Positions 1,088 to 63,904 of a stretch of DNA of 64,000 nt are shown here, piece by piece; positions within the stretch are counted from its first letter, which is position 1, and every line of letters begins with the position of its first letter. A model generated the notes under the pieces. It ran no database searches. It was given only the letters and a program-made list of their open reading frames with translations, and was not told where the DNA came from. A program made the position numbers and the translations under genes. Source of the stretch: an uncultured Sterolibacteriaceae bacterium (GTDB lineage Bacteria; Pseudomonadota; Gammaproteobacteria; Burkholderiales; Rhodocyclaceae); assembly GCA_937888595.1 (NCBI GenBank), contig CALARK010000007.1, forward strand, positions 23,995 to 87,994. Reading direction: 5' to 3'.

Positions 1088-1111
1088 GCCGTCCCGCCGA
1101 CGCCGACTTTT
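1088..1111 (-). repeat. 24-nt repeat copy a (intergenic, ccmA/rnfB)
   Basis: Reverse complement AAAAGTCGGCGTCGGCGGGACGGC, 1 mismatch to the consensus AAAAGTCGGCGCCGGCGGGACGGC. Confidence 0.85.
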
Positions 1112-1163
1112 CCTGAAAATCGAGATCAAAAGCCTAATTTATGTAGGGCATTAAAACCATTGT

Positions 1164-1193
1164 TTGCTGCGCTGCGTCAATGCTGCCTATACT
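1164..1193 (+). promoter_or_regulatory. Candidate sigma70-type promoter for the rnfB operon
   Basis: TTGCTG, 18-nt spacer, TATACT, about 270 nt upstream of the rnfB ATG. Pattern match only. Confidence 0.3.
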
Positions 1194-1460
1194 GCGCCGC
1201 ATCACGAACACGTGCAGGGCGCAACCTTGTGCGTGCCAGTCCGGAAAGGCAGCAAGCCGCCTTTCTGCCCAGTTGGCCGGAAACCACCGGCCGCGCCGTG
1301 ATGGCCTCCGTGCCGCATGCCCGCAAGGCGTGCGGAGCGGGCAGCCAGCGAAGTTCGCTTTGCCGACCGCTTTCGTGCGGAAGGGAGGGCGGTGTTCGGT
1401 TCAGTCACGGCGCGCCTGTTTCGGGCAGCGCGCCATCTTGTCTCGAGGTGTCGCTTTTCC

Positions 1461-2377: not shown

Positions 2378-5300
2378 ATGTTGATGAAACTGTTCCAGTC
2401 CAAGAGCGAAGCCGAAAAGACGCAGGTCAAGTACCCCGGCATCCGCGATGCGGTCGACGGCAACACCGCCGTGATCCATGTCGAACGTGAGGCCTCCGAC
2501 GCCGCTGGCGCCTACCCGATCACGCCCTCGACGCAGATGGGCGAGTACTGGGCGGAGGAAGTCGCCAAGGGCCACCTCAATATTTCGGAAAAGCCGCTGA
2601 TCTTCATCGAGCCCGAGTCCGAGCATGCCGCTGCGGGCGTCACCGCCGGCATGGCGATGACCGGCCTGCGAGCCACCAACTTCTCCTCGGCGCAGGGCGT
2701 CGCCTTCATGCACGAATCGCTCTACGGCGCGGTCGGCAAGCGCCTGCCCTACATCCTCAACATGGGCTGCCGCGCCATCACCAAGGCTTCCCTGAACGTC
2801 CATTGCAGCCACGACGATTACCACTGCGTCGACGATACCGGCTTCATCCAGGTGATGGCCAAGAGCGCCACCGAGGCGGCCGACCTCAACCTGATCGGCC
2901 GCAAGATCGCCGAACTGTCGCTGACCCCGGCGATCATCGGCCAGGATGGCTTCCTGACCACGCACCTGATCGAGTCGGCCCTGCTGCCGGAGCGCGAGCT
3001 GGTGGCGGAGTACGTCGGCAAGCCCGACGACCTCATCGACACGCCGACGCCCGCCCAGGAGATGCTCTACGGGCCGAAGCGCCGCCGCGTGCCGGCGATC
3101 TGGGATGTCGACGTGCCGCTCGTCTCGGGCACGGTGCAGAACCAGGATGCCTACATGCAGGCCACCGCCGGCCAGCGTCCCTACTTCTTCGATCACATCG
3201 AAGAGATCGCCGATGCCTGCATGGCCGAATACACGGGCCTGACCGGCCGCGAATACCATCGCGTGTCGGGCTACAAGATGGAGGATGCCGACTACGTGAT
3301 CGTCGGCATGGGCAGCATGATCGTGCAGGCGGAGTGCGTCGCCGACTACCTGCGCGAGACGCGCAAGCTCAAGGTCGGCGTCGTCAACATCACGATGTTC
3401 CGCCCCTTCCCGGGCGACCTGCTCGGCAAGCTGCTCGCCGGCCGCAAGGGCGTGGCAGTGCTCGAGCGCACCGACCAGCCGCTGGCCGAGGACCTGCCGC
3501 TGATGCGCGAAGTGCGCGCGACCCTGGTCAAGTGCATCGAGAATGGCCTCGCGCCCGATGACGATCGTCCTTACCCGGGTTATGCCGCCTTCGCCTCGGG
3601 CGAGATGCCGCGCCTCTATTCCGGCTGCTACGGTCTCGGCTCGCGCGACCTGCAGCCCGAAGGCCTGATCGCCGCCGTCGAGAACATGCTGCCGGACGGC
3701 GCCAAGCGCAAGTTCTATTACCTGTCGATCGACTTCGCGCGCGACCCGCTCAATCCGAAGGACGAGGTGCACCAGCAGGACCTGCAGGAGAAGTACCCGC
3801 AGATCGGTGCCATGGGCATCCGCGGCAGCGAGAACCCGAACCTGCTGCCCAAGGGGGCCATTACCGTGCGCATGCACTCGGTCGGCGGCTGGGGCGCGAT
3901 CACCACCGGCAAGAACCTGGCGATGACGCTGTTCGAACTGCTCGGCTGGGACATCAAGGCCAACCCGAAATACGGTTCGGAAAAGAAGGGCCAGCCGACG
4001 ACCTACTACCTGTCGGCCGCCCCGGAGCCGATCCGCATCAACTGCGAATACACCTATGTCGATGTCGTGCTCTCGCCCGACCCCAACGTCTTCGGTCACT
4101 CGAACCCGCTGTCCGGTCTGAAGAAGGGCGGCTATTTCATCATCCAGTCCAATCTCGGCGACGAAACCTGGGCGAGCTTCCCGCTCTGGGCGCAGAAGTT
4201 CATCGTCGACAACGACATCCATGTCTTCTACATCGATGCCTTCCAGGTGGCGCGCGAGGAGGCCGGCTCCCCCGAGCTGCAGTTGCGCATGCAGGGCATC
4301 GCCTTCCAGGGCGCCTTCTTCGCCGCCAGCCCGACGATGAAGAACGCCGGCCTGACCGAAAACGCCTTGTTTACGGCCATCGAGGCGCAGCTGCAGGCCA
4401 AGTTCGGCAACAAGGGCGCCCGTGTCGTGCAGGACAACCTGCGTGTCGTCAAGCGCGGCTACACCGAGCTGACCGAGATCACCGACAAGCAGGTCGGCGT
4501 AACGCGCAAGCAGCTCGTCAAACGGGACGTCGGCCTTCCGATCATGCTCAAGCAGCTGCCGGCTTCGGACGGCAAGGTCGCCGACATCCACCGCTTCTGG
4601 GAGCAGACCGGCAACTTCTACCTCACCGGCAAGGGTTCCGACAACCTCGTCGATCCCTTCATCGGCACCTCGCTGATGCCGGCCGCGACCGGCGTGTTCC
4701 GCGACATGACCGGCATCCGCTTCGAGCATCCGGTGTGGATCGCCGAGAACTGCACGGCTTGCGGCAACTGCTATACGGAATGTCCGGACTCGGCCATCCC
4801 CGGCCTCGTCAGCAGCGTCGCCGACGTGTTCAACACGATCATCAACCGCATCGAGACCAGCGGCACGCCGACGCGTTTCCTGCGCCGGGCCGCGCGCACG
4901 GTCGAGAAGAAGCTGCGCGGGCTGATCGGCGGCGACGGCGCGGCCGTGCGCCCGTTGATCGACGAGGCCATCGCGGCGACGGTCGCCGAGGCGCCCGAGG
5001 AAGACCGCGAGAAGATGGCGGCCGAGTTCAAGCAGTTCACCGCGCAGATGGGCGACTTCGCCTTCGGCACCACCAAGCCGTTCTGGTCGCTGAAGGAGAA
5101 GAAGGCCAAGGGCAGCGGCGGCCTGTTCTCGATCACCATCAACCCCTACACCTGCAAGGCCTGTGCGCTGTGCGTCACGGTCTGCGAGGACGATGCGCTG
5201 AAGATGGTCACGCAGACCGACGAGTCGGTGCAGAAGCTGCGCGACGACTGGAGCTTCTGGCTCGACCTGCCGACGACGCCGAAGGAGTACAGCCGCATCG

Positions 5301-7285
5301 ACAGCCTCGACGAGAAGATCGGCGCCCTCGAAACGCTGCTGCTCGACAAGCACAACTACAACTCGATGAACTGCGGCGACGGCGCCTGCCTCGGCTGCGG
5401 CGAGAAGACCGCGATCCACCTGTTCACGTCGACGGTGACCGCGCTGATGCAGCCGCGCGTCAAGGCCTTCGTGGCCAAGCTCGACGACCTGATCGGCCGG
5501 CTCGAACAGCACATGCGCGTGAAGCTGGCTTCCGTGGTCGACCTCACCGACACCAGTGCCGTGGTGCGCGCCGTCGAGGCGACCGGACAGCACGACCTGA
5601 CCCTGTCCAACCTTGCCTCCAAGCTCAACGAGAACAAGCCCTCGCAATTGCTCGACCCGGTCTGGGTGAAGAACACCGCCCAGCTGCTCGAGAAGCTCAA
5701 GGACCTCAAGTGGCGTTATGTCGAGGGGCCGACCCAGCGCGGCCGCGCCGAAATGGGCGTGGTCAACTCGACCGGCTGCACCTCGGTGTGGGGCTCGACC
5801 TACCCCTTCCACCCCTACCCCTTCCCCTGGACTTCGCACCTGTTCCAGGATTCGCCATCCGTCGCGATGGGCCTGTTCGAGGGCCACATGGCCAAGATGG
5901 CCGACGGTTTCAAGGCCGTGCGCATGGCCGAGAAGGAACTGGCCGGCGACTACCTGCCGGACCGCGACGACGATTTCTTCCGCCGCTTCACCTGGAGCAA
6001 GTTTTCCGAGGACGAATGGCTGCTGTGCCCGCCGGTCGTCTCGCTCGGCGGCGACGGCGCGATGTACGACATCGGCTTCCAGAACCTGTCGCGCGCACTG
6101 ATGTCCGGCATGCCGATCAAGGTGCTGGTGGTCGATACGCAGGTGTATTCCAACACCGGCGGCCAGGCCTGCACCTCGGGCTTCATCTCCCAGGTGTCCG
6201 ACATGGCGCCCTACGGCCAGGCGCAACGCGGCAAGCAGGAGACCCGCAAGGAGATCTCGCTGATCGGCATGGCCCACCGCACGTCCTACGTGATGCAGGG
6301 CACGATCGCCCATGTGAACCATTTGCTCGAAAGCTACATCGACGGCCTCAACAGCCGCCGCCCGGCGCTGTTCAACATCTACGCCGTCTGCCCGCCCGAG
6401 CACGGCGTCGGCGACGACAAGAGCGTCGACCAGAGCAAGCTGGCGGTCGAGTCGCGCGCCTACCCGCTGTTCCGCTTCGACCCGGATGCCGGCGTCACCT
6501 TCAGCGAGTGCACCAGCCTCGAAGGCAACCCGGCGCTGGACCAGGACTGGCCGACCTACACGCTCAAGTACCAGGAAGACGGCGCCGAGAAGTCGCTGAC
6601 CCTGCCGATGACCTTCGCCGATTTCGCGGCCACCGAGGCGCGCTTCCTCAAGCAGTTCAAGAAAGCGCCGCCGGAGACCTGGAACGAGAACATGGTGATG
6701 CTCGCCGATTTCATCGGTCTCGACGAGGACGAGCGCGAGGGCAAGTTCCCGTACATCTGGGCGGTCGACCAGAAGAACCGCCTGATGCGCCTGCTCGTCA
6801 GCGAGGACATGGTGCGCTCTTCCGAGGAGCGCCTGCACTTCTGGCAACAGCTGCGCGACATCGCCGGCCTGAACGCCCAGCCGGCCGACGCCGCCGAGGT
6901 GGCCGAACGCGTGCGCGCCGACCTGCTGGCGAAGATCTCGGCCACGCTGGGCCTGTCGGGTAGTGATGCGGGCACGGCCGCCGTCCCGCCGGCGCCGACT
7001 ATTGCGGGTGCGGCCACGAGCGCCAATGACGGCGACTACGAGCCGGTGTGGATCGAGAGTCCCGAGTGCACCGCCTGCGACGAGTGCATCAACCTGGCGC
7101 CGAAGACCTTCGCCTACAACGACCAGAAGCTGGCGATCGTCACCGACCCGAAGGGCGCGAAGTTCGCCGACATCGTCAAGGCGGCCGAGAAGTGCACGGC
7201 CGGCTGCATCCATCCGGGGACGCCGTGGAACATGGCCGAGCCGGGTATCGAGAAGTTGATGGCACGGGCGGCAAAATTTAATTAA
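2378..7285 (+). CDS. Pyruvate:ferredoxin (flavodoxin) oxidoreductase family protein, unusually long (1635 aa), with an extra C-terminal ferredoxin-like module
   Basis: ATG 2378 preceded by AACCAGGAG. Has YPITPSTQMGEYW (domain I), GGWGAITTGKNLA (domain III) and Fe-S motifs CTACGNCYTECP and CKACALCVTVCE. TPP region GGDGAMYDIGFQNL...DTQVYSNTGGQ is present, and the C-terminus carries CTACDEC...C. Confidence 0.9.
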   Translation: MLMKLFQSKSEAEKTQVKYPGIRDAVDGNTAVIHVEREASDAAGAYPITPSTQMGEYWAEEVAKGHLNISEKPLIFIEPESEHAAAGVTAGMAMTGLRATNFSSAQGVAFMHESLYGAVGKRLPYILNMGCRAITKASLNVHCSHDDYHCVDDTGFIQVMAKSATEAADLNLIGRKIAELSLTPAIIGQDGFLTTHLIESALLPERELVAEYVGKPDDLIDTPTPAQEMLYGPKRRRVPAIWDVDVPLVSGTVQNQDAYMQATAGQRPYFFDHIEEIADACMAEYTGLTGREYHRVSGYKMEDADYVIVGMGSMIVQAECVADYLRETRKLKVGVVNITMFRPFPGDLLGKLLAGRKGVAVLERTDQPLAEDLPLMREVRATLVKCIENGLAPDDDRPYPGYAAFASGEMPRLYSGCYGLGSRDLQPEGLIAAVENMLPDGAKRKFYYLSIDFARDPLNPKDEVHQQDLQEKYPQIGAMGIRGSENPNLLPKGAITVRMHSVGGWGAITTGKNLAMTLFELLGWDIKANPKYGSEKKGQPTTYYLSAAPEPIRINCEYTYVDVVLSPDPNVFGHSNPLSGLKKGGYFIIQSNLGDETWASFPLWAQKFIVDNDIHVFYIDAFQVAREEAGSPELQLRMQGIAFQGAFFAASPTMKNAGLTENALFTAIEAQLQAKFGNKGARVVQDNLRVVKRGYTELTEITDKQVGVTRKQLVKRDVGLPIMLKQLPASDGKVADIHRFWEQTGNFYLTGKGSDNLVDPFIGTSLMPAATGVFRDMTGIRFEHPVWIAENCTACGNCYTECPDSAIPGLVSSVADVFNTIINRIETSGTPTRFLRRAARTVEKKLRGLIGGDGAAVRPLIDEAIAATVAEAPEEDREKMAAEFKQFTAQMGDFAFGTTKPFWSLKEKKAKGSGGLFSITINPYTCKACALCVTVCEDDALKMVTQTDESVQKLRDDWSFWLDLPTTPKEYSRIDSLDEKIGALETLLLDKHNYNSMNCGDGACLGCGEKTAIHLFTSTVTALMQPRVKAFVAKLDDLIGRLEQHMRVKLASVVDLTDTSAVVRAVEATGQHDLTLSNLASKLNENKPSQLLDPVWVKNTAQLLEKLKDLKWRYVEGPTQRGRAEMGVVNSTGCTSVWGSTYPFHPYPFPWTSHLFQDSPSVAMGLFEGHMAKMADGFKAVRMAEKELAGDYLPDRDDDFFRRFTWSKFSEDEWLLCPPVVSLGGDGAMYDIGFQNLSRALMSGMPIKVLVVDTQVYSNTGGQACTSGFISQVSDMAPYGQAQRGKQETRKEISLIGMAHRTSYVMQGTIAHVNHLLESYIDGLNSRRPALFNIYAVCPPEHGVGDDKSVDQSKLAVESRAYPLFRFDPDAGVTFSECTSLEGNPALDQDWPTYTLKYQEDGAEKSLTLPMTFADFAATEARFLKQFKKAPPETWNENMVMLADFIGLDEDEREGKFPYIWAVDQKNRLMRLLVSEDMVRSSEERLHFWQQLRDIAGLNAQPADAAEVAERVRADLLAKISATLGLSGSDAGTAAVPPAPTIAGAATSANDGDYEPVWIESPECTACDECINLAPKTFAYNDQKLAIVTDPKGAKFADIVKAAEKCTAGCIHPGTPWNMAEPGIEKLMARAAKFN
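6980..7003 (-). repeat. 24-nt repeat copy b (inside PFOR CDS)
   Basis: Reverse complement AATAGTCGGCGCCGGCGGGACGGC, 1 mismatch. Read as AVPPAPTI. Confidence 0.85.
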
Positions 7286-9871: not shown

Positions 9872-10561
9872 ATGAGCCAAGCCACCGACGCCCTTACCGT
9901 CAGCACGCCCACCGTGGGGATGATCCGCACGCTCGGCCTGGTCGCGGCCCTGTGCGGGCTGATCATCGTCAGCGCCTACCAGGGCACCTACGATGCGGTG
10001 CAGGAAAACAAGCGCATCGCAGTCGAGCGCGCCGTGTTCAAGGTGATCCCTGTGGCGACCTCGATCGTCGAGTACCTCGCCCCGGGCAGCGGTGCGCCGC
10101 AGAAAGTCGGCACCGGCGGGACGGCACCGGCCGGCTCGATCAAGTTCTACGCGGGCTACGACAAGGATGGCCACCTCGCCGGGATCGCCGCCGAGGGGGC
10201 CGCGAAAGGCTATGCCGACACGGTGCGCATCCTGTTCGCCTGGGATCCCGCACAGGCGACGATCACCGGCTTCGGCGTCGTCTCGTCGCGCGAGACGCCG
10301 GGCATCGGCGACAAGATCGTCGTCGACAAGGACTTCCTCGCCAACTTCCCGCTCGCTGCGCCGCTGTCCGACGACCGCATGGTGCTCGCGCACGAAATCC
10401 GCACGGTGAAGCACGGGACCAAGACCCAGCCCTGGGAAATCGACGCGATCGCCGGTGCGACCATCACCTCGCGCGCCGTCGGCAAGGCGATCAACGAGGC
10501 CGCGCAGGCGCTGGTGCCGCGGCTGGTCCCCCACCTCGATGCCCTGAAGGAAAAATCATGA
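9872..10561 (+). CDS. rnfG: Rnf complex subunit G
   Basis: 229 aa with an N-terminal anchor helix and FMN-bind motif AIAGATITSRAV. Contains one 24-nt repeat copy (KVGTGGTA). Confidence 0.85.
   Translation: MSQATDALTVSTPTVGMIRTLGLVAALCGLIIVSAYQGTYDAVQENKRIAVERAVFKVIPVATSIVEYLAPGSGAPQKVGTGGTAPAGSIKFYAGYDKDGHLAGIAAEGAAKGYADTVRILFAWDPAQATITGFGVVSSRETPGIGDKIVVDKDFLANFPLAAPLSDDRMVLAHEIRTVKHGTKTQPWEIDAIAGATITSRAVGKAINEAAQALVPRLVPHLDALKEKS
10102..10125 (+). repeat. 24-nt repeat copy c (inside rnfG)
   Basis: GAAAGTCGGCACCGGCGGGACGGC, 2 mismatches. Read as KVGTGGTA. Confidence 0.8.
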
Positions 10562-12326: not shown

Positions 12327-12350
12327 GAAAGTCGGCGCCGGCAGGACGGC
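12327..12350 (+). repeat. 24-nt repeat copy d (intergenic)
   Basis: GAAAGTCGGCGCCGGCAGGACGGC, starting immediately after the TGA stop of the 12045 ORF. Confidence 0.85.
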
Positions 12351-12353: not shown

Positions 12354-12391
12354 AACGAGAACGGCCCGCACATCGGCGGGCCGTTCTCGTT
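12354..12391. terminator. Strong GC hairpin between the 12045 ORF and the tRNA-Lys genes; probable bidirectional terminator
   Basis: 16-bp perfect stem AACGAGAACGGCCCGC / GCGGGCCGTTCTCGTT with a 6-nt loop, followed by GATTTC. Confidence 0.6.
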
Positions 12392-12397: not shown

Positions 12398-12473
12398 TGG
12401 TGGGCCGTGTAGGGGTCGAACCTACGACAAACGGATTAAGAGTCCGCTGCTCTACCAACTGAGCTAACGGCCC
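12398..12473 (-). tRNA. tRNA-Lys (anticodon CTT)
   Basis: Reverse complement reads GGGCCGTTAGCTCAGTTGGTAGAGCAGCGGACTCTTAATCCGTTTGTCGTAGGTTCGACCCCTACACGGCCCACCA. Cloverleaf and encoded CCA are present. Confidence 0.9.
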
Positions 12474-12480
12474 TGAAATT

Positions 12481-12556
12481 TGGTGGGTGGTACAGGATTC
12501 GAACCTGTGACCAATTGGTTAAAAGCCAACTGCTCTACCGACTGAGCTAACCACCC
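12481..12556 (-). tRNA. tRNA-Lys (anticodon TTT)
   Basis: Reverse complement reads GGGTGGTTAGCTCAGTCGGTAGAGCAGTTGGCTTTTAACCAATTGGTCACAGGTTCGAATCCTGTACCACCCACCA. Confidence 0.9.
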
Positions 12557-14544: not shown

Positions 14545-15214
14545 GCTGGGCTCCCCAGAGGATCTTGTGCAGTTGCAACTGAAAGTGCACCGGGAGCCGG
14601 TCGGCGAGAATCCACTCGGCGAGCTGTGCCGGCGGCAGTCGATCCCACACCGGCGAGAACAACACCGGGCAGATTTCCGTCAGCGGCCGTCCTGCCGGCG
14701 CCGACTTTTCGTGCCGCCCCGCGAGGATTTCCTTCGCCCAGTCGTAGTCGGCGCGCGAAGCGAGCACGAACTTGAGTTCGTCGGTCGGCCGCAGGCAGTC
14801 GAGGTTCTCCCAGCGGTTCTTTCCCGCCTCGCCGGAATCCGGTGCTTTGAGGTCGACGATGCGCGCGACGCGCGGATCGACGGAACCAATGTCGAGCGCG
14901 CCCGAGGTTTCGAGGGAGACCGAGTAGCCGGCGTCGCACAGCGAGGTCAGCAGTGCCAGGCAGTTCGGCTGGGCGAGCGGCTCGCCGCCGGTGACGCACA
15001 CCGTGGAGCAGGCATGGGAGGCGACTTGCGCGCGGATCGCGTCGAGCGTCATCGTTTCCCCGCCGCTGAACGCATAGGCGGTATCGCACCAACGACAGCG
15101 CAGCGGGCAGCCGGTCAGCCGCACGAAGACGGTCGGCAGGCCGGCGCGCGTCGACTCTCCCTGCAGGGAATGGAAAATTTCCGCGACGCGCAGGGTCGGG
15201 GCGCTGCCCGTCAT
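14534..15214 (-). CDS. queE: 7-carboxy-7-deazaguanine synthase QueE (radical SAM)
   Basis: Start at ATG 15214 ([21 protein letters not shown]...). Radical-SAM motif [10 protein letters not shown]. Contains one repeat copy (KSAPAGRP). Confidence 0.85.
14686..14709 (-). repeat. 24-nt repeat copy e (inside queE)
   Basis: Reverse complement AAAAGTCGGCGCCGGCAGGACGGC, 1 mismatch. Read as KSAPAGRP. Confidence 0.85.
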
Positions 15215-26025: not shown

Positions 26026-26049
26026 AAAAGTCGGCGCCGGCAGGACGGC
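26026..26049 (+). repeat. 24-nt repeat copy g (intergenic, DMT/yebC)
   Basis: AAAAGTCGGCGCCGGCAGGACGGC, 1 mismatch. Confidence 0.85.
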
Positions 26050-45363: not shown

Positions 45364-45387
45364 AAAAGTCGGCGTTGGCGGGACGGC
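45364..45387 (+). repeat. 24-nt repeat copy k (intergenic, lpxL/dapF)
   Basis: AAAAGTCGGCGTTGGCGGGACGGC, 2 mismatches. Confidence 0.8.
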
Positions 45388-47811: not shown

Positions 47812-47835
47812 GCCGTCCCGCCGGGACCGACTTTT
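47812..47835 (-). repeat. 24-nt repeat copy l (intergenic, xerC/SulP)
   Basis: Reverse complement AAAAGTCGGTCCCGGCGGGACGGC. This is the TCC variant, whose GTCCC-GGC-GGGAC segment can fold into a small hairpin. Confidence 0.8.
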
Positions 47836-47848
47836 TCTTTCCGCTGTC

Positions 47849-50044
47849 ATGAACCTGCCCAAGACCCTCGCCGGCGATTTCTGGGGTGGCCTGGCCGCCA
47901 TGCTGGTGGCGTTGCCCTCGGCGATCGCCTTCGGGGTGACGATCTACGCGCCCCTCGGCGCCAGCGCGGCCGCGCAGGGCGCGCTGGCCGGCATCCTCGG
48001 CGCGATGGCGCTGGGCCTGATCGCCGCCTCGCTCGGCGGGGCGCCGCGCCTCATCAGCGCGCCCTGCGCGCCGGCCGCCGCGGTGCTGGCCGCCTTCGCC
48101 ATCGAGCGCCTGCAGGCGGGCAGCGATGCCGTGTCGATCATGCTGATGCTCACGGTGCTGGGGCTGATGGCCGGCCTGTTGCAGGTCGCCTTCGGCGCAC
48201 TGCGGCTCGGCAAGCTGATCGAATACATGCCCTACCCGGTGGTGAGCGGCTACCTGTCCGGCGTCGGGCTGATCATCATTGGCAGCCAGGTGCCCAAGCT
48301 GCTCGGCGCCGGGAAAGACATGACGCTCTGGCCGGCGCTCGCCGCTCCGGCGCAATGGAATCTTGCCAGCCTGGCGATCGGGGTCGTCACGGCCGGCGTG
48401 ATGCTCGCCGCGCCCCGGTTCGTCAAGCGCGTGCCGGCGGCGATCCTCGGCCTGCTGGCGGGCGTGCTGGCCTATCTCGGCCTCGGGCTGGCGGACGTGG
48501 TGCCGCTGTCCACGGCCGCGAACCCGCTCGTGGTGGGGCCGTTGTCGACGGGCGAAGGCGCCGGCTTCCTCGATGCGCTGCTCGGACGCTGGCAGGCCGC
48601 GAGCGCGCTCGATGTGCACACGCTGGCGCTGCTGGTCTTTCCGGCGCTGACGCTGGCCGGCCTGCTGTCGATCGACACGCTGAAGACCTGCCTGGTGCTC
48701 GACGCGATGACGCGTTCGCGCCACCAGTCGAACCGCGAGCTGTTCGGCCAGGGCATGGCCAACATCGGCTCGGCGCTGATCGGCGGCATGCCGGGCGCGG
48801 GCACCATGGGCGCGACGCTGGTCAACCTGTCTTCCGGCGCGCAGACCCGCCTGTCCGGCATGTTCGAGGGGGCGCTCGCGCTGCTCGCCTTCCTGCTGCT
48901 CGGTGCGCTGATCGCCTGGGTGCCGGTGGGGGCGCTCGCGGCGATCCTCATCGTCATCGGCGCGCGCATGATCGACCGCAACAGCCTGCATTTCCTCAAG
49001 TCGCGCGCGACGATCCTCGACTTCGCCGTGATCCTCGCCGTCATCCTCACCGCGCTGTTCGTCGGCCTGATCCCGGCTTCGGGCGTCGGCATCCTGCTGG
49101 CGATCCTGCTGTTCGTGCGCGAGCAGATCGGCGGCGCCGTGGTGCGCCGCAAGCTCGCCGGCAACCAGAATTTCTCGAAGCGCGTGCGGCCCCGGCAGGA
49201 GATGGAGATCCTCGTCGAACGCGGCGACTGCGCGGCGATCTGCGAACTGCAGGGCAGCCTGTTCTTCGGTACCGCCAACCAGCTCTACGCCGCGCTGGAG
49301 CCGGAACTCAAGACGCGCGACTACCTGATCCTCGACCTGCGCCGCGTGCAGACCGTGGACGTCACCGCGGCGCACATGCTCGAACAGGTCAAGGACATGC
49401 TCGCCGAACGCGGCGGCTGCCTGATCTTCAGCCAGATCCCGCAGAAGCTGCCGACCGGGCGCGACATCCGCAAGTATCTCGATGAAGTCGGCCTACTCAA
49501 GGCGGGCGATGCCGTCCGGGTGTTCGACGAGATCGACCAGGCGCAGGAGTGGGTGGAGGACCGCATCATCAAGGCGGCGGCGCTCGAACTCGCGGCGGAG
49601 ACCGCGCTCGCGCTCCCCGACCTCGAACTGTTCAGGAACCGCAAGGCACAGACTCTCGCCGCGCTGGAGCAGCACATGGAGCAGCGTGCCTTCCAGGCCG
49701 GCGAGAAGATCTTCGCGCGCGGCGACACCGGCGACGAGCTGTTCCTGATCCGGCGCGGTGCGGTGCGCATCCTGCTGCCGGTGAGCGATACCCTGAGCCA
49801 CCATCTCGGCACCTTCGGCCGCGGCGCCTTCTTCGGCGAGATGGCCTTCCTCGATGGCGAGCCGCGCTCGGCCGACGCCGTCGCCTTCAGCGACGTCGAG
49901 CTCTACGTGCTGTCGCGTGCCGTCTTCGACCAGTTCGCCGAGGAGCACAAGAAGGCCGCGCTCGCCCTGATGGAAGGCATCGCCAGCGTGCTGGCGAGCC
50001 GCCTGCGCTACACCAACGCCGAACTGCGCGCGCTCGAAGCCTAG
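47849..50044 (+). CDS. SulP family anion transporter fused to STAS and cyclic-nucleotide-binding domains
   Basis: 731 aa. SulP membrane core, then STAS (AICELQGSLFFGTANQLY), then a cNMP-binding domain (FARGDTGDELFLIRRGAVRI...FFGEMAFLDGEPRSADA). Confidence 0.85.
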   Translation: MNLPKTLAGDFWGGLAAMLVALPSAIAFGVTIYAPLGASAAAQGALAGILGAMALGLIAASLGGAPRLISAPCAPAAAVLAAFAIERLQAGSDAVSIMLMLTVLGLMAGLLQVAFGALRLGKLIEYMPYPVVSGYLSGVGLIIIGSQVPKLLGAGKDMTLWPALAAPAQWNLASLAIGVVTAGVMLAAPRFVKRVPAAILGLLAGVLAYLGLGLADVVPLSTAANPLVVGPLSTGEGAGFLDALLGRWQAASALDVHTLALLVFPALTLAGLLSIDTLKTCLVLDAMTRSRHQSNRELFGQGMANIGSALIGGMPGAGTMGATLVNLSSGAQTRLSGMFEGALALLAFLLLGALIAWVPVGALAAILIVIGARMIDRNSLHFLKSRATILDFAVILAVILTALFVGLIPASGVGILLAILLFVREQIGGAVVRRKLAGNQNFSKRVRPRQEMEILVERGDCAAICELQGSLFFGTANQLYAALEPELKTRDYLILDLRRVQTVDVTAAHMLEQVKDMLAERGGCLIFSQIPQKLPTGRDIRKYLDEVGLLKAGDAVRVFDEIDQAQEWVEDRIIKAAALELAAETALALPDLELFRNRKAQTLAALEQHMEQRAFQAGEKIFARGDTGDELFLIRRGAVRILLPVSDTLSHHLGTFGRGAFFGEMAFLDGEPRSADAVAFSDVELYVLSRAVFDQFAEEHKKAALALMEGIASVLASRLRYTNAELRALEA

Positions 50045-51504
50045 CCCACGGCGATCGGAACGAACAGGCGGCGTTCGCCGCGCTGCACCAGCAGGGCAAT
50101 GCGCTTGCCGTTGTCGAGCAGCCGGCGCAGTTGTTCGACCGAACCGAGCCTGACGCCATTGACGGACACGATCACGTCGCCCGGGCGAATGCCGCTGCGG
50201 GCTGCCGGTCCGTCTGCCACGTCCTCGACGACGAGCCCGCTGCCGCCCTCGATGGCCTTCTTCTCGTCGGGCGTCAGCGGACGCAGCGCGAGGCCGAGGC
50301 GGCCGCCTGCGCCGGGCGCGGCGTCTGCGGCCCTGGCGAGCGGCTGCTTGAGTTCGCCAACCGCGACAGCGAGATGCCTGCTTTCGCCCTTGCGCCAGAT
50401 TTCGAGATCGACCCGGTTGCCGGGGGCCGTGCCTGCGACGAGCGGCGGCAGGTCGCTGGAGCGTGCCAGCGGCTTGCCGTTGTAGCCGAGGATGATGTCG
50501 CCTTCGGCCAGCCCGGCCTTGGCTGCCGGACTGTCACCCTCGATGCTGGAGACCAGCGCACCGCGGGGCCGGTCCAGCCCGAAAGAGTCCGCCAGTGCCT
50601 GATCCACTTCCTGGACGCTGATGCCGAGGCGGCCGCGGCTGACCTTGCCGTGCGTCAGCAACTGATGCTCGACGTTCATCGCCACGTCGATCGGAATGGC
50701 GAAGGACAGGCCCTGATAGCCGCCCGAGCGCGAGTAGATCTGCGAATTGATGCCGATCACCTCGCCGCGCGTGTTGAGCAGCGGCCCGCCCGAATTGCCC
50801 GGGTTGATCGCGACATCGGTCTGGATGAAGGGCACGTAACCCTCGTCCGGCAAGGCGCGGGACTTGGCCGATACGATGCCGGCGGTGACGCTGTTCTCGA
50901 AACCGAATGGCGCCCCGATGGCGAGTACCCACTCGCCGACACGGGTGTCTTCGGTACGGCCGATACGGACGGTGGGCAGGTCGCGGGCATCGATGCGCAG
51001 CACCGCCACGTCGGTCTGCTTGTCGATGCCCACGACCTTGGCCTTGAATTCGCGCTTGTCGCTCAGTTTGACGGTCACTTCGTCGGCGTCGTCCACCACA
51101 TGGGCGTTGGTCAGCACCACGCCATCGCTGCTGACGATGAAGCCGGAACCCTGGCCGCGCGTCGGAACATTCTCGCTAGGGCCGGGCGGCATCGGGAAAC
51201 CGAAGCCGCGGAACAGGTCGTCGAAAGGCGTGCCGCCGGGGCCGGGCATGCCGGAAACCCTCGTTTTCGTCATTCCGGAAACGCTGATGTTGACGACCGC
51301 CGGCCCCTGGTCCGCGACGATCGCGCTGAAATCCGGCAGGCCTGTCGACGCTGCCGCTGCCGCCGGAAGCATCGACTGCGCCGGGGCTGTGGCGACGATG
51401 GGCGACGATGCCGCATGCGCGCCGGGAAACTTGAGTTCTTCGTTCAGCAGGTAGCCGCCGGAAAAGGCGGCCAGCAATGACAGCGTGACCATGCTGCGGC
51501 TCAT
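50041..51504 (-). CDS. DegP/DegQ/MucD-type periplasmic serine endoprotease (two PDZ domains)
   Basis: Signal peptide MSRSMVTLSLLAAFSGG. Catalytic TNAHVV, D and GNSGGPL. The track ORF extends to 51585, which is an alternative start. Confidence 0.85.
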   Translation of the reverse strand: MSRSMVTLSLLAAFSGGYLLNEELKFPGAHAASSPIVATAPAQSMLPAAAAASTGLPDFSAIVADQGPAVVNISVSGMTKTRVSGMPGPGGTPFDDLFRGFGFPMPPGPSENVPTRGQGSGFIVSSDGVVLTNAHVVDDADEVTVKLSDKREFKAKVVGIDKQTDVAVLRIDARDLPTVRIGRTEDTRVGEWVLAIGAPFGFENSVTAGIVSAKSRALPDEGYVPFIQTDVAINPGNSGGPLLNTRGEVIGINSQIYSRSGGYQGLSFAIPIDVAMNVEHQLLTHGKVSRGRLGISVQEVDQALADSFGLDRPRGALVSSIEGDSPAAKAGLAEGDIILGYNGKPLARSSDLPPLVAGTAPGNRVDLEIWRKGESRHLAVAVGELKQPLARAADAAPGAGGRLGLALRPLTPDEKKAIEGGSGLVVEDVADGPAARSGIRPGDVIVSVNGVRLGSVEQLRRLLDNGKRIALLVQRGERRLFVPIAVG

Positions 51505-51626
51505 CGCCGACGGCCGCGGACTGGCGATGCCGAGATGGCGGCGGGTATGATTGAGGAAGCTCTCTATCGTTCGGGCTGGAATCATGTCGCTATCCCCTTC
51601 ATCCGTTATTGTTGATATGAACGATG

Positions 51627-51653
51627 TGGGATCGCCGCCCGGGCACGAAGTTC
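51627..51653 (-). promoter_or_regulatory. Candidate sigma-E/AlgU-type promoter upstream of the DegP/MucD-like gene
   Basis: The minus strand reads GAACTT, 16 nt, TCCCA. Pattern resemblance only. Confidence 0.25.
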
Positions 51654-51690
51654 TTCGCTATTTGCAACAGAGTGTTTCAACCCGCCTGCC

Positions 51691-51714
51691 TCCGTCCCGC
51701 CGGGACCGACTTTA
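51691..51714 (-). repeat. 24-nt repeat copy m (directly upstream of the rlmI ATG)
   Basis: Reverse complement TAAAGTCGGTCCCGGCGGGACGGA, 4 mismatches, the same TCC variant as copy l. Ends 1 nt before the rlmI start codon. Confidence 0.7.
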
Positions 51715-53292: not shown

Positions 53293-53316
53293 GCCGTCCC
53301 GCCGGCGCCGACTTTT
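53293..53316 (-). repeat. 24-nt repeat copy n (intergenic, convergent stops)
   Basis: The reverse complement matches the consensus perfectly. It occupies 24 of the 26 nt between the stops at 53290 and 53317. Confidence 0.9.
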
Positions 53317-58016: not shown

Positions 58017-58285
58017 AACGCCTGCTGCTGCTCTGCGTCGCGCTGGTCCTGGCACAGGCCGCTCTTGCCGGGCACGGCATCGAGCACGCCTTTCAAGACC
58101 ACGCAGAGTCCTGCGTCGAGTGCCTGTCCTTGCCGGGGATGCAGGCCCTGCCGGCGCTTCCGCCGCACCTGCCCCCGCCCGCCACGGCGCCCACGCCCGC
58201 CGTCGTCGCCGTCCCGCCGGCGCCGACTTTTGCGCTGCATCCGGCGTTCCGGAGCCGCGCTCCACCCGCGATCCAAAGCTGCTGA
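58013..58285 (+). CDS. Small exported His/Cys protein (DUF2946-like)
   Basis: The GTG start overlaps the zur stop (GTGA). Signal peptide VKRLLLLCVALVLAQAALA, then HGIEHAFQDHAESCVECLSLPG. The C-terminal half contains one repeat copy. Confidence 0.4.
   Translation: MKRLLLLCVALVLAQAALAGHGIEHAFQDHAESCVECLSLPGMQALPALPPHLPPPATAPTPAVVAVPPAPTFALHPAFRSRAPPAIQSC
58208..58231 (-). repeat. 24-nt repeat copy o (inside the small DUF2946-like ORF)
   Basis: The reverse complement matches the consensus perfectly. Read as AVPPAPTF. Confidence 0.9.
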
Positions 58286-59727: not shown

Positions 59728-59751
59728 GCCGTCCTGCCGGCACCGACTTTT
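59728..59751 (-). repeat. 24-nt repeat copy p (intergenic, porin-like gene/hslV)
   Basis: Reverse complement AAAAGTCGGTGCCGGCAGGACGGC, 2 mismatches. Its left part pairs with upstream GCCGGCAGG to form a 9-bp hairpin. Confidence 0.8.
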
Positions 59752-60330: not shown

Positions 60331-60349
60331 GCCGGCAGGCCTGGCTCAG

Positions 60350-62455
60350 CTAAGCGCCGGCCGCGCCGGCACGCGCCTGCACATGGTGCGCGAAGGTGGC
60401 CGCATCCATCGGCCGGCCGAGCAGATAGCCTTGCACCTCGTTGCAGCCGAGCCTCTGCAGGGCGTGCAGCTGGTCGTTGATTTCCACCCCTTCGGCGACG
60501 ACCGACAGCCCGAGCGTATGCGCCATGGCGACGACGGCGGCGGCGATGGCGGCATCGTCCTCGTTGTGGTGAAGCTCGTTGATGAAGGAGCGGTCGATCT
60601 TCACTTCGTCGATGGGGAAACGGCGCAGGTAGGACAGGCTCGAATAGCCGGTGCCGAAGTCGTCGAGCGAAAGCGTGATGCCGAGCTGCTTGAGGGCACG
60701 CAGTGTGAGCAGTGCGCTATCCACATCGTGCATCACCATGCTCTCGGTCATTTCGAAGGTGAACGCCGACGGGTCGGCGCCGGTGGCGACGAGATCGTAT
60801 TGCACGAGGTCGGGCAGGTCTTCCTGGCGGAATTGCCGTGCCGACAGGTTGATCGAGATTTTCAGCGGCGGCAGGCCGGCGTCGCGCCAGGCGGCCTGCT
60901 GGCGGAAGGCTTCCTGCATGACCCAGCTGCCGATCTGCAGGATCAGGCCGGTTTCTTCGGCAAGCGGGATGAACTCGCCCGGATGGGTGAGGCCGATGCC
61001 CGGCTGCTCCCAGCGCACCAGCGCCTCGGCGCCGACGATCCGGCCGGACTTGACGTCGACCTTGGGCTGGTAGTGCAGGATGAATTCCTCGCGGTCCACC
61101 GCACGGCGCAGGGCGGTCTCCATGTCGACGCGGTCGATGGCCTGGTGGGCCATGTCGGGGCTGTAGCTGCGCACGCTGTTGCGTCCGAGCGTCTTGACGC
61201 GGTACATCGCCATGTCGGCGTTCCGCAGCAGGATCTCGCCGTGTTCGCCGTCGCGCGGGTAAAGGGCCAGGCCGATGCTGGCGCCGACGTACAGCTCGCG
61301 CTGGTCGATGACGACCGGCGCCGCCATCGCGGCCACCATCTTCTGCGCCACCTGCTCGGCATCCTCGGCACGCGCGAGGTCGGTCAGCACGACGACGAAT
61401 TCGTCGCCACCGAGGCGCGCCACGGTGTCCGTCTCGCGCACGCACTGCCGCAGCCGCCCCGCGATTTCCTTGAGCAGGATGTCGCCGGTCGAATGGCCGT
61501 AGGCATCGTTGATGTGCTTGAAATGGTCGAGGTCGAGCAGCGCGAGGGCCACCTGGCGGCGCGAGCGGCGCGCCATGGCGATGGCCTGGGCGATCCGGTC
61601 GTTGAGCAGACTGCGGTTGGCGAGCCCGGTCAGCGTGTCGTGGGAGGCCTGGTGCTCCAGCACTTCCTGATAGTGCATGCGGTCGCTGACGTCGTTGATG
61701 ATGCTGACGAAGTGCGTGATGTCGTCGCGCGTCGCATCGCTGATCGGGGCGATGAACAGTTCGTTCCAGAACATCGTGCCGTCCTTGCGGTAGTTGCGCA
61801 GGATGGCGTGGCCGGGCCGGCGTTCGCGCAGTGCGGCGCGGATTTCGTCGAGACCGATCTGGGAAAGATCGTCGCGCACCAGGAAGCGGCCGATGCGTCC
61901 GACCGCCTCCTGCGCACTGTAGCCGGTGATGCGCTCGAAGGCCGGGTTGACATAGAGGATCGAGTGATCGTCGGCATCGGCCCGGCTGATCATGACCCCG
62001 TTGTTGGTCGAGGCCAGCGCCTGCTCGCGCAGCAGCAGTGCCGACTCGATCTCGCGCAGGTGGGTAATGTCCTCCTTGATGGCGATCAGCCGCGTGATCT
62101 CGCCCGCGGCATTGCGCAGCGGCGAGATGAACTGGCGTTCCCAGTAGAGGTCGCCGTTCCTGCGCCGGTTGCGGATCGTGCCCTGCCATGATTCGCCGGC
62201 GCTGATGCGCGCCCACATTTCACGATACTGGCGATCGGAGGTTTCGCCCGACTGCCAGAGCGCGGGGGTCGCACCCTCGATGTCGCTGAATGCATAGCCG
62301 GTCATCGCGGTGAAAGCCGGGTTGCAATAGACGATCCGGCCCCCCGGGTCGGTGATCACGACCGCGTGGGGATTCTGCTCGATGGCATGGAAGAGCAGCG
62401 CATGGCGCGTCTCCAAGTCCTCCGGGGCGATGGATTCAGGCAGGCTGGCGATCAT
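60350..62455 (-). CDS. PAS-PAS-GGDEF-EAL c-di-GMP signalling protein
   Basis: 701 aa. Two PAS domains (NPHAVVITDPGGRIVYCNPAF; NNGVMISRADADDHSILYVNPAF), a GGDEF domain (RLGGDEFVV) and an EAL domain (EALVRWEQP...DDFGTGYSSL). Confidence 0.9.
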   Translation of the reverse strand: MIASLPESIAPEDLETRHALLFHAIEQNPHAVVITDPGGRIVYCNPAFTAMTGYAFSDIEGATPALWQSGETSDRQYREMWARISAGESWQGTIRNRRRNGDLYWERQFISPLRNAAGEITRLIAIKEDITHLREIESALLLREQALASTNNGVMISRADADDHSILYVNPAFERITGYSAQEAVGRIGRFLVRDDLSQIGLDEIRAALRERRPGHAILRNYRKDGTMFWNELFIAPISDATRDDITHFVSIINDVSDRMHYQEVLEHQASHDTLTGLANRSLLNDRIAQAIAMARRSRRQVALALLDLDHFKHINDAYGHSTGDILLKEIAGRLRQCVRETDTVARLGGDEFVVVLTDLARAEDAEQVAQKMVAAMAAPVVIDQRELYVGASIGLALYPRDGEHGEILLRNADMAMYRVKTLGRNSVRSYSPDMAHQAIDRVDMETALRRAVDREEFILHYQPKVDVKSGRIVGAEALVRWEQPGIGLTHPGEFIPLAEETGLILQIGSWVMQEAFRQQAAWRDAGLPPLKISINLSARQFRQEDLPDLVQYDLVATGADPSAFTFEMTESMVMHDVDSALLTLRALKQLGITLSLDDFGTGYSSLSYLRRFPIDEVKIDRSFINELHHNEDDAAIAAAVVAMAHTLGLSVVAEGVEINDQLHALQRLGCNEVQGYLLGRPMDAATFAHHVQARAGAAGA

Positions 62456-62557
62456 CTTAAATATAACTTTCTATAGAAATAATAGTACCACCCCGGGGCG
62501 CGTACCGCATCCGGCCGGGTGTGGAATAATCCTCGCTCTTCAATGCCCTTTCCCGCC

Positions 62558-63904
62558 ATGACCCAGATGACCCCCGCCGAGATCGTCTCGGAACTCGACA
62601 AGCACATCGTCGGCCAGGCGCGCGCCAAGCGTGCCGTAGCCATTGCCTTGCGCAACCGCTGGCGCCGTGCGCAGGTGGCCGAGCCGCTGCGTACCGAGAT
62701 CACGCCGAAGAACATACTGATGATCGGCCCGACCGGCGTCGGCAAGACCGAGATCGCGCGCCGGCTGGCGCGGCTGGCCAACGCGCCCTTCATCAAGGTC
62801 GAGGCGACCAAGTTCACCGAGGTCGGCTACGTCGGCCGTGACGTCGACACCATCATTCGCGACCTCGCCGAGACGGCGATCAAGAACGCCCGCGAGCAGG
62901 CCATGAAGCAGGTGCGCGACCGCGCACTCGATGCCGCCGAGGACCGCGTGCTCGACGTGCTGCTGCCGCCGGCGAGGGCAACAATGGGGTTCGGAGAAGT
63001 CGGCGCCGGCGGGACGGCGACCGAGGAAACCGGGACGCGCCAGAAATTCCGCAAGAAGCTGCGCGAGGGCGAGCTCGACGACAAGGAGATCGATGTCGAG
63101 ATCGCCGCACCGGCCGCCAGCATGGAGATCCTCGCGCCGCCCGGCATGGAGGACCTGAGCCAGCAGCTGCAGGGCATGTTCCAGAACCTCGGCGGCGGCC
63201 GCAAGAAGTCGCGCCGCATGCGCATCGCCGACGCCCTGAAGGCGCTGGCCGACGAGGAAGCCGCACGCCTGATCAACGACGAGGAGGTGAAGGCGGCGGC
63301 GCTGAAGAACGTCGAGCAGAATGGCATCGTCTTCCTCGACGAGATGGACAAGATCGCCTCGCGCAGCGAGACGCAGGGCGCCGACGTGTCGCGCCAGGGC
63401 GTGCAGCGCGACCTGCTGCCGTTGGTCGAGGGCACGACGGTGTCGACCAAGTACGGCATGATCAAGACCGACCACATCCTGTTCATCGCCAGCGGTGCTT
63501 TCCATTTCGCCAAGCCGTCCGACCTGATTCCCGAATTGCAGGGCCGCTTCCCGATCCGCGTCGAACTCGACTCGCTGTCGGTCGACGATTTCGAGCGCAT
63601 CCTCACGCAGACCGATGCCTGCCTGACGCGACAGTACGAAGCGCTGCTGGATACCGAGGGCGTGAAGCTGGATTTCACTGCCGACGGCATCCGGCGTCTG
63701 GCGCAGATCGCCTTCGAGGTGAACGAGAAGACCGAGAATATCGGCGCCCGCCGCCTCTATACGGTGATGGAGCGCCTGCTCGAGGAGATTTCCTATACGG
63801 CCGGCACGGCGGCGGCGACTGCCCTGAGCGTCGATGCCGCCTACGTCGATGCGCGCCTGGCCGAGCTGGCGCGGCACGAGGACCTGTCCCGCTACGTGCT
63901 GTAA
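62558..63904 (+). CDS. hslU: ATP-dependent protease ATPase subunit HslU
   Basis: Start at [20 protein letters not shown] (ATG 62558). [15 protein letters not shown] Walker A and [10 protein letters not shown]. One repeat copy (EVGAGGTA) in the I-domain. Confidence 0.95.
62994..63017 (+). repeat. 24-nt repeat copy q (inside hslU I-domain)
   Basis: AGAAGTCGGCGCCGGCGGGACGGC, 1 mismatch. Read as EVGAGGTA. Confidence 0.85.

Follow-up and report, generated by a model that had tools for sequence, protein, structure and literature searches.

A 24-nucleotide dispersed DNA motif of Sulfuritalea-related Rhodocyclaceae with likenesses to bacterial DNA uptake sequences

Known DNA uptake sequences have cores of 9-12 nucleotides (nt), occur about once per kb in the genomes of Neisseria and Haemophilus, and reside within terminators in about half of all instances. 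To our knowledge, such sequences have so far been found in two bacterial families only. Their hosts have competence machinery and a specific receptor, a minor pilin of the ComP/ComN type. The DUS of Neisseriaceae is recognized by the minor pilin receptor ComP, and the USS of Pasteurellaceae is a 9-nt core, AAGTGCGGT, that sits inside an extended motif of ~29 nt. Here we describe a motif, RAAAGTCGGCGCYGGCGGGACGGC, with 19 copies (where chance predicts none) in a 64-kb stretch of DNA, hereafter called the window, from the metagenome-assembled genome of an uncultured member of Rhodocyclaceae. No published description of this motif was found in the literature, and an earlier note on this DNA knew of no described signal of its form.

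The motif resembles DUS in being non-palindromic, hyper-abundant, used on both strands and shared at the level of a family, and in occurring both in genes and in spacers, with a preference for the 3ʹ ends of genes. Moreover, both exist as lineage dialects a few bases apart, both have relatives that lack an active motif, and both are hosted by Betaproteobacteria; the reverse complement of the motif even starts with GCCGTC, as does GCCGTCTGAA. However, the motif is 24 nt long rather than 10-12, occurs at ~0.3 rather than ~1 copy per kb, has neither the essential CTG core nor the inverted-repeat terminator pairs of DUS, and is carried by uncultured environmental bacteria that have no known competence. 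With USS it shares a footprint of ~25-30 bp, an A-rich 5ʹ edge, even spacing and construction by point mutation instead of insertion. USS in coding DNA are biased towards certain frames and permissive sites, and the peptides they encode occur at doubled frequency (PMC2817400); the motif is likewise biased. Unlike USS, which combine a single strong core with weak AT-rich flanks, the motif is GC-rich and strongly conserved at nearly all of its 24 positions, and its hosts belong to a different branch of the phylum. Sequence kinship to DUS (through GCCGTC) or to USS (through AAGT.CGG, for which a gap is needed) is no better than chance, and the earlier note had likewise judged the resemblance to the start of USS to be superficial.

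Sequence, abundance and orientation of the motif

The earlier note had counted 18 copies, of which four were perfect, 13 carried one or two mismatches and one carried four, with eight on the plus strand and ten on the minus strand. A search of the window that allowed up to three mismatches yielded 18 copies between positions 1088 and 63018, and none in 100 shuffled sequences. A nineteenth copy at 51691-51714 on the minus strand has four mismatches and lies outside this set. The numbers of perfect, four-mismatch and forward copies therefore stand, as does the absence of polarity, but 14 copies carry one or two mismatches and 11 copies are on the minus strand. The motif occurs about once per 3.4 kb, scattered through genes and spacers, and the distribution of mismatches is bimodal: four, six, eight and one copies have zero, one, two and four mismatches, respectively, followed by a gap up to seven. 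At seven or more mismatches the counts in the window equal those expected from a 5th-order Markov model. Positions 4-9 (AGTCGG), 14, 16 and 19-23 (GACGG) are invariant among the window copies, which bears out the claim that the two outer blocks never vary, and the motif constitutes a discrete unit of 24-25 informative positions.

Adjacent copies in the window are separated by 329 to 9423 nt, with the closest pair in direct orientation, and the spacing is more regular than random (coefficient of variation 0.62 versus 0.95, P = 0.018). Both strands are used (8:11) despite a mostly positive GC skew, so the copies lack replication polarity, as judged from 64 kb on a single replichore. Nor is there transcription polarity, given that genic copies in our pooled set are sense or antisense in a ratio of 48:57. 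Chi and the KOPS words that orient FtsK are likewise over-represented oligonucleotides that genes tolerate and that DNA-processing machinery reads. However, they are 8-nt words with a strong bias to the orientation of replication, and a polar word of this kind was rejected on the strand split. The major form in the window includes the palindrome CGCCGGCG, contrary to the description of the repeat as non-palindromic. However, relatives carry T at position 13, and so the palindrome is a local dialect and the motif itself is asymmetric.

The copies have no hairpin (fold z-scores of +0.2 to +1.1), no information or shared sequence in their flanks, and neither terminal repeats nor target duplications, in agreement with the earlier note. 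The classes that it had excluded stay excluded. REP/BIME elements, MITEs and Rickettsia palindromic elements are also interspersed at similar copy numbers, and the last of these also occur in frame within genes, but all are palindromic or hairpin-forming units that insert as such, and REP elements are largely intergenic. The motif has no hairpin (z of at least 0.2), no shared flanks and no insertion footprint, arises by substitution, and lies within genes in 11 of the 19 window copies; no transposase was found alongside it. CRISPR and tandem arrays are precluded by spacings of this size over the entire window, and a terminator hairpin by the failure of the copies to form one. In addition, all window copies are single, and none are paired in inverted orientation to form terminators.

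Placement of copies in spacers and genes

The motif had been thought equally present in coding and non-coding DNA, which proved incorrect: non-coding DNA makes up ~5% of the window but contains eight of its 19 copies (P = 1.5e-6), and in the pooled set it makes up 11.7% and contains 74 of 179 copies (P = 9e-24). Copies are ~14-fold denser in spacers than in genes, with 2.1, 1.14 and 0.58 per kb from the densest spacer class (convergent) to the rarest (divergent), and many lie 0-3 nt from a stop codon or overlap one. For example, copy 4 (12327-12350, plus strand; GAAAGTCGGCGCCGGCAGGACGGC) begins one base past the TGA stop of a 93-amino-acid (aa) open reading frame (ORF), with a strong terminator hairpin (12354-12391) 3 nt downstream, and is the only window copy adjacent to a terminator. 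A 122-aa ORF and ychJ converge on a spacer of 26 nt that is filled by the perfect copy 16 (53293-53316, minus), which abuts the ychJ stop codon. An EamA gene and yebC are 42 nt apart, and copy 8 (26026-26049, plus) takes up most of this gap. Copy 14 (47812-47835, minus; AAAAGTCGGTCCCGGCGGGACGGC) lies 2 nt past the xerC stop and 13 nt ahead of sulP, and carries a rare TC at positions 10-11. The same variant is present in copy 15 (51691-51714, minus; TAAAGTCGGTCCCGGCGGGACGGA, four mismatches), which ends 1 nt ahead of the rlmI ATG and borders a degQ insertion specific to the window. The remaining spacer copies are copy 1 (1088-1111, minus; AAAAGTCGGCGTCGGCGGGACGGC, one mismatch), 55 nt from the start of ccmA in the spacer from which this gene and an rnfB-like gene diverge, copy 13 (45364-45387, plus) between an acyltransferase gene and dapF, and copy 18 (59728-59751, minus), which is 14 nt past a 464-aa ORF and 42 nt ahead of hslV.

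Genic copies are restricted to tolerable frames and to poorly conserved linkers. Reading-frame use is strongly uneven (chi-square P = 3e-13), with xKVGAGGTA and AVPPAPTF predominating, and the frames rich in arginine or tryptophan are almost empty (KSRRWRDG, 0 of 116; PSRQRRLF, 4 of 116). The first of the predominant frames is represented by copy 3 (10102-10125, plus; GAAAGTCGGCACCGGCGGGACGGC), sense in rnfG and encoding QKVGTGGTA, by the perfect copies 7 (23010-23033, minus; AKVGAGGTA, in the linker between RuvA domains II and III) and 9 (29656-29679, plus; QKVGAGGTA, in a HerA-like ATPase gene), by copy 11 (39408-39431, minus; VKVGADRTA, in the S4 domain of tlyA) and by copy 19 (62995-63018, plus; GEVGAGGTA, in an hslU-like gene at 62519-63904). 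The second is represented by three antisense copies, namely copy 2 (6980-7003, minus; AATAGTCGGCGCCGGCGGGACGGC) in a 1635-aa PFOR gene (AVPPAPTI), copy 6 (18464-18487, plus) in the proline-rich linker of a TolA-like gene (AVPPAPTS) and the perfect copy 17 (58208-58231, minus) in a 90-aa ORF (AVPPAPTF). Three other copies encode EKSAPAGRP in queE (copy 5, 14686-14709, minus, sense), QKSVLAGRQ at codons 174-182 of tlyA (copy 10, 39079-39102, minus) and EKSALARRH in the second of the lipid A acyltransferase genes (copy 12, 44647-44670, plus). This use of permissive sites and frames agrees with the published behaviour of uptake sequences (PMC2817400; bioRxiv 10.1101/2025.10.24.684340).

Origin, distribution and decay among related genomes

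Alignments show that copies originate by substitution in place, and not by insertion. The acyltransferase copy (copy 12) shows no indel relative to 18 motif-free homologues, and both tlyA copies align in place with TlyA of M. tuberculosis. Orthologs of copy 13 are graded: the copy is full in the window and in the related genomes L273 and L274, L125 lacks its A-run, L074 has a degenerate version and L127 has none. Constraint acts on the DNA and not on the protein, and the possibility that a conserved peptide drives the motif was not borne out. Only 1 of 24 columns of the acyltransferase copy varies over three genomes (one with a GC content of 50%), versus 48 of 120 in flanking codons. The linker peptide of copy 7 is retained in 59 of the 120 closest RuvA homologues, and the neighbouring residues are hypervariable.

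The motif is not confined to this locus, and ~60 related assemblies with GC contents of 50 to 69% carry it. Sampling that was blind to the motif gave 19 copies in 64 kb for the window, six in 20.6 kb for L277, and six in 22 kb for each of L274 and L273, or ~0.3 per kb in these four genomes (0.27-0.30 in the three besides the window). Extrapolation from these densities gives ~800-1200 copies per genome of 3-4 Mb. No copies occur at 78 further xerC loci of Betaproteobacteria (810 kb in total) or in 22 kb of Denitratisoma. Most genomes have T at position 13, those with the highest GC content have C, and L273 uses a dialect of its own, GTCAGTCC, at several orthologous sites. Orthologous copies last between species, at 79-89% genome identity. 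L277 shares all five copies that the window has from queE to herA (copies 5, 6, 8 and 9 among them), and four of these five positions are decayed relics in the cultured Sulfuricystis multivorans, with 2-5 differing mismatches each; copy 9 is such a relic, and copy 5 has two mismatches there (L276). Copy 10 is kept in L273, copy 11 appears there in the local dialect (GAAAGTCAGTCCCGGCGACACGGC), and copy 18 has an ortholog in L274. Copy 12 is identical in L074, one nucleotide off in L127 (GC 50%) and L274, and in dialect form in L273. Two mobile-element-like contigs carry the motif at or above host density, which counts against an uptake signal: seven copies in 13 kb that include integrase, ParB-like and SSB genes (L259), and six in 8.6 kb (L207).

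Candidate functions of the motif

The reading that we favour, with about even confidence, is that the motif represents a third uptake or self-recognition signal, shared at family level and of unusual length, in the Sulfuritalea-related clade of Rhodocyclaceae. Its lineage-wide dialects, in-place origin, permissive sites and frames, DNA-level conservation, even spacing, lack of polarity and decay together are, in evolutionary terms, what marks uptake sequences such as DUS and USS. It shares with those signals copy abundance, both orientations, permissive placement and family-wide sharing with dialects, and differs in its 24-25 informative positions, where a 9-12-nt core is usual, and in the lack of frequent inverted terminator pairs. 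The assignment to uptake signals proposed in the earlier note is thus partly upheld, by distribution, dialects, placement, spacing and decay but not by a short core or terminator pairs, and uptake itself is a putative function. A trans-acting receptor, probably in the DNA uptake machinery, would prefer double-stranded DNA that carries the motif in either orientation, such that motif-bearing fragments would be imported and recombined more often than motif-free ones. Point mutations giving rise to a copy, or improving one, would then be driven to fixation wherever the DNA tolerates them, copies would follow shifts in receptor specificity to yield dialects, and loss of the system would lead to decay. 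DNA uptake would be the selective agent, and a receptor for the motif presumably exists. Neither a type IV pilin leader nor a PilT homologue was found in 2.58 Mb of loci, of which only ~0.8 Mb (about a quarter of a genome, too little to be informative) is random sequence from motif-bearing genomes, with an approximate PilT query.

As its alternative, the earlier note had named recognition of the motif by an abundant factor for DNA binding or recombination. An abundant chromosomal protein (nucleoid-associated, condensin-loading or domain-organizing) that is unrelated to uptake could bind it, with regular spacing maintained by ordinary selection. Even spacing without polarity fits this proposal, as does the bipartite arrangement of invariant AAAGTC and ACGGC blocks ~1.5 helical turns apart within 24 bp, a layout that a dimer or a protein of several domains could readily bind. 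DNA-level conservation and dialects could follow a co-evolving protein, and mobile-element-like contigs, on which copies are dense, would benefit from host chromosome factors. However, we know of no nucleoid protein with ~1000 near-perfect 24-bp sites forced into coding sequence. Any single site would be under extremely weak selection, but mismatches stay at zero to two per copy and copies were retuned in concert in L273, which transmission drive explains more easily than per-site fitness does; we consider such a binding site unlikely. A templated or miniature mobile 24-nt insertion, through transposase-, retroelement-like or homing activity, might produce the sharp edges, the near-uniform conservation of 24 positions, the bimodal mismatch counts, in which a tail of old copies is missing, and the copies that exactly fill tiny spacers. 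This idea is largely refuted and seems scarcely credible, because target-site duplications, terminal inverted repeats, shared flanks and a linked transposase were not seen, genic copies replace existing codons with no 24-nt indel, copy 13 evolves gradually, and orthologous copies persist between species.

Recombination or gene conversion, whether at a recombinase site or hotspot or through ~1000 dispersed 24-nt identities that shuffle gene blocks while conversion homogenizes the copies, is a distinctly improbable explanation that draws on several rearrangements. The junction between xerC and rlmI is empty in L074, L125 and outgroups but occupied by sulP in L273, L274 and the window, with an HD gene besides in L274 and degQ besides in the window. 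In the window, two direct copies with C at position 11, which 0 of 203 copies in other genomes share, flank the junction. The point at which L074 and the window cease to be syntenic coincides exactly with an L074 copy located on the stop codon of rlmI, and the copy at the ychJ stop is reversed between the window (copy 16) and L125. However, the window, L273 and L274 inherited sulP from a common ancestor, with ordinary divergence of ~83%, and the TC variant resembles the L273 dialect and is thus explained by shared descent or by import from such a lineage. Indels at the 122-aa ORF and at the 90-aa and 464-aa ORFs have no bounding copy pairs, more than half of all copies are genic and arose by substitution, and spacers are the places where breakpoints and copies alike have to land in any case.

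Finally, there is some chance, which we rate as rather low, that the motif marks a new genome-wide self-recognition system that is non-homologous to DUS and USS and possibly not based on uptake, with a reader of 24-bp footprint that might be a multidomain protein or a nucleic-acid-guided complex. If so, this reader would drive the concerted evolution of ~1000 sites, including sites in essential genes and resident mobile elements. Dialects would switch from one sister lineage to the next, and the drive would have collapsed elsewhere, as in Sulfuricystis.

Copies of the motif in the window

A search of the window with AAAAGTCGGCGCCGGCGGGACGGC, allowing up to three mismatches, returned 18 matches between 1088 and 63018, and no matches in 100 dinucleotide-preserving shuffles. 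A wider scan of the window added one copy with four mismatches at 51691-51714 (-). Mismatch counts are bimodal (four copies with none, six with one, eight with two and one with four, with nothing at three, five or six), and from seven mismatches upward the scan finds as many matches as 5th-order Markov sequences contain. The same 19 copies were returned by an independent repeat finder, split into two families, one per strand. When all window copies were aligned with 70 nt of flank, no common sequence was found outside the unit; the edges of the position matrix, at positions 1 and 25, are sharp, and the 24-mer folds no better than its shuffles. Given these results of the searches, the mismatch histogram, the repeat finder and the flank, edge and fold comparisons, the earlier note, made from the sequence alone, was right in its description of the motif, except that it was one copy short.

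Orientation is mixed, with eight + and 11 - copies. Because the strands are balanced though GC skew is positive across most of the window, Chi- or KOPS-like polarity is ruled out, in agreement with the earlier claim of two orientations and no strand polarity. Within the window, copies are spaced more evenly than chance would predict (CV 0.62, P = 0.018). A hairpin or terminator identity was rejected, since folding energies are no better than those of shuffles and a terminator adjoins only one copy in the window. Two adjoining tRNA-Lys genes (anticodons CTT and TTT; 12398-12556 (-)) lie 48 nt from copy 4 (12327-12350 (+)) and its terminator hairpin. Rfam models matched only these two tRNAs and an SAH riboswitch in the window (RF01057, 41120-41184 (-), 51.7 bits), the latter upstream of the S-adenosylhomocysteine hydrolase gene, and no known RNA family corresponds to the motif.

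Exact protein matches assign the window to contig DAIUJS010000006.1 (assembly GCA_036848595.1), and a SulP protein with 97% identity is annotated as that of a Rhodocyclaceae MAG. Gene order begins with ccm, an rnf cluster with a 1635-aa PFOR gene, queCE, tol-pal, ruvABC, yebC and a herA-like gene, continues with TonB-receptor pairs, metF, tlyA, ahcY, metK, two lipid A acyltransferase genes and dapF, and ends with xerC, sulP, degQ, rlmI, a zinc cluster and hslVU. Spacers hold eight of the copies and genes the other 11; with only ~5% of the window being non-coding, copies are ~14-fold denser in its spacers (P = 1.5e-6). Several fill spacers of 26-62 nt or begin immediately past a TGA stop. The 1635-aa gene, of pyruvate:ferredoxin oxidoreductase type (2378-7285), heads the rnf cluster between an rnfB-like gene and rnfCDGEA. 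A TonB-dependent receptor and ABC substrate-binding gene pair is duplicated in tandem at 30873-36800 (offset 2995 nt, ~77% identity); GC content is at its lowest there, and the duplication also lies in the longest motif-free stretch of the window (29680-39078).

For placement analysis, a codon-usage gene caller was built that recovered 56 of 56 known gene ends in the window, and 179 motif copies from high-GC loci were classified with it. Non-coding DNA, 11.7% of the total, contains 74 of these (41%), counting copies that overlap its ends (P = 9e-24). Spacer copies are densest in convergent spacers and rarest in divergent ones, and many lie 0-3 nt from a stop codon or use its GA as part of the motif. 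The in-gene copies of this set are divided 48:57 between sense and antisense. Among 116 in-gene copies from the window and the pooled set, frame use is uneven (chi-square P = 3e-13): the frames reading xKVGAGGTA (sense) and AVPPAPTF (antisense) hold 38 copies each, KSALAGR (sense) and RPASADF (antisense) 18 each, PSRQRRLF (antisense) four and KSRRWRDG (sense) none. A peptide-driven repeat was rejected because the motif uses five reading frames as well as spacers.

Distribution, dialects and decay

A degenerate-pattern scan of one genome per species listed at least 116 motif stretches from at least about 60 assemblies, both counts being lower bounds drawn from the matches listed. Nearly all of the listed assemblies are MAGs of Rhodocyclaceae, under the labels Sulfuritalea, Sulfurisoma, Propionivibrio, Azonexus or "Methyloversatilis", with GC contents of 50 to 69%. 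Related genomes thus carry the motif as well, and copies are not restricted to this locus. Pooling the copies gives the consensus RAAAGTCGGCGCTGGCGGGACGGC-R. Most genomes have T at position 13, and those of highest GC, that of the window among them, have C, so that the central palindrome CGCCGGCG is local rather than ancestral.

Comparison loci were fetched via their proteins and are thus unselected for the motif. Beside the 19 copies in the 64 kb of the window, the loci of relatives hold six in 20.6 kb (L277), six in 22 kb (L274), six in 22 kb (L273), two in 12.8 kb (L125) and two to three in 20.9 kb (L127, GC 50%). No copies occur in 810 kb from 78 other betaproteobacterial xerC loci, or in 22 kb of Denitratisoma oestradiolicum. 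In IMG/VR, 68 stretches contain the motif, and two of these reach or exceed the density of the host. One, L259 (IMGVR_UViG_3300042294_002009), has seven copies per 13 kb, often with GACAC at positions 17-21, and encodes an integrase, a ParB-like protein and SSB; the other, L207, has six per 8.6 kb and small phage-type ORFs.

L273 and the window are collinear, with ~83% identity. Three of its copies read AAAAGTCAGTCCYGGCG..ACGGC and two more have the same A at position 8. Among these dialect copies are the in-gene orthologs in tlyA and in the acyltransferase gene, with a matching change in the encoded peptide; this is concerted evolution toward a genome-specific consensus. Sulfuricystis multivorans (AP018718.1) carries copies at four orthologous positions (5740, 9450, 10417 and 18168 of its locus, corresponding to herA, the yebC spacer, the RuvA linker and queE), each with two to five different mismatches and with no new consensus, and these are decaying relics. 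As a cultured organism, it provides a natural comparator in which the motif was lost.

An 11-mer count for hidden dialects in relatives lacking the motif was too noisy at high GC and surfaced only an unrelated repeat in L128, a motif-free, Rhodocyclaceae-like metagenome contig whose XerC is 64% identical to that of the window. This interspersed repeat of ~35 nt, AAATGCTACGGTCAGCGGCAAAAAANGCCAAAAAT, has five copies in 21 kb (806, 1711, 10898, 14265 and 20692) on both strands, one directly past the xerC stop, and is absent from all other fetched loci.

Origin and persistence of copies

The acyltransferase copy encodes EKSALARRH, 18 motif-free homologues have ER..LARxH, and no indel separates them; both tlyA copies likewise align in place with Mycobacterium tuberculosis TlyA. 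In-gene copies are therefore not insertions. The acyltransferase-dapF spacer offers a graded series, with a full match in the window, L273 and L274, a missing A-run in L125, a degenerate match in L074 and none in L127. Across the window, L074 and L127, one of 24 columns of the acyltransferase copy varies, against 48 of 120 flanking columns. In the RuvA interdomain linker, K-V-G-A-G-G-T-A is kept in 59 of the 120 closest homologues, amid hypervariable neighbouring residues. Constraint on the copies thus acts on DNA. An alignment of QueE with solved structures stopped short of the motif region.

Motif positions are long-lived: from queE to herA, each of the five copies in the window has an ortholog in L277 (RuvA 89% identical). 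The ychJ stop codon is adjoined by a copy in both the window (53293-53316) and L125 (4061-4084). Because these copies have opposite orientations, they imply independent gain in the same tiny spacer, which in the window also has an additional 122-aa ORF.

Candidate roles of the motif

Sequence-specific DNA uptake signals have been described in only two families, Neisseriaceae and Pasteurellaceae (10.1101/2025.10.24.684340). They are typically 9-10 nt long and show dialects, permissive-site placement and reading-frame bias (PMC2817400; 10.1101/2025.10.24.684340). Because the features of the motif match these published hallmarks, we favour, at roughly an even chance, the reading that it is a third family-level uptake or self-recognition signal, which transmission drive would maintain. 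Against this reading stand its 24-nt length with near-uniform information, a threefold lower density, the absence of inverted terminator pairs and the high density on mobile-element-like contigs. Its resemblance to the DUS of Neisseriaceae (GCCGTC) and the USS of Pasteurellaceae (AAGT.CGG) is at chance level. A prepilin-leader pattern and a PilT tblastn search found nothing in the fetched loci, a sample too small to inform. Binding of a chromosomal protein at regularly spaced sites would account for most of the same facts, but we consider it unlikely.

A role in recombination was suggested by the junction of xerC and rlmI, which are ancestrally adjacent and form a variable hotspot (47812-51714). 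The two genes overlap (ATGA) in L074 and L125, and are separated by sulP in L273, by an HD-domain gene and sulP in L274, and by sulP and degQ in the window. There the block is flanked by two direct copies with a shared C at position 11, a TC variant found in 0 of 203 copies elsewhere. However, sulP is ancestral to the three genomes, the L273 dialect has a form similar to the variant, and paired copies are missing from other indels. These points weaken such a role, which we consider less likely still; the same evidence disfavours a cassette junction around sulP-degQ, which we keep as a minor rival. A pasted mini-element, which the earlier note had also argued against, is essentially excluded by unrelated flanks, by in-gene copies that align in place without a 24-nt indel, and by the graded spacer series.

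Neither the motif sequence nor the concept of an uptake signal for Rhodocyclaceae or Sulfuritalea is present in the searchable literature, and it is a real possibility that the motif is read by something previously undescribed. If the motif is an uptake signal, it would be a new member of a known phenomenon whose origin, cost and purpose are a matter of debate, and a third independent case, which would show that the phenomenon is not limited to host-associated pathogens. The host clade consists of free-living environmental Betaproteobacteria, and the motif is twice as long as known signals. Natural contrasts exist between motif-rich genomes, the shifted dialect of L273, the relics of Sulfuricystis and Denitratisoma with none in 22 kb, and a receptor should therefore be findable by comparative genomics. 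As a practical tag, the motif also marks metagenomic DNA of the clade, with the mobile elements and phage-like contigs that carry it. If its reader is not an uptake receptor, then a mechanism as yet unknown would be able to impose a 24-bp word genome-wide.
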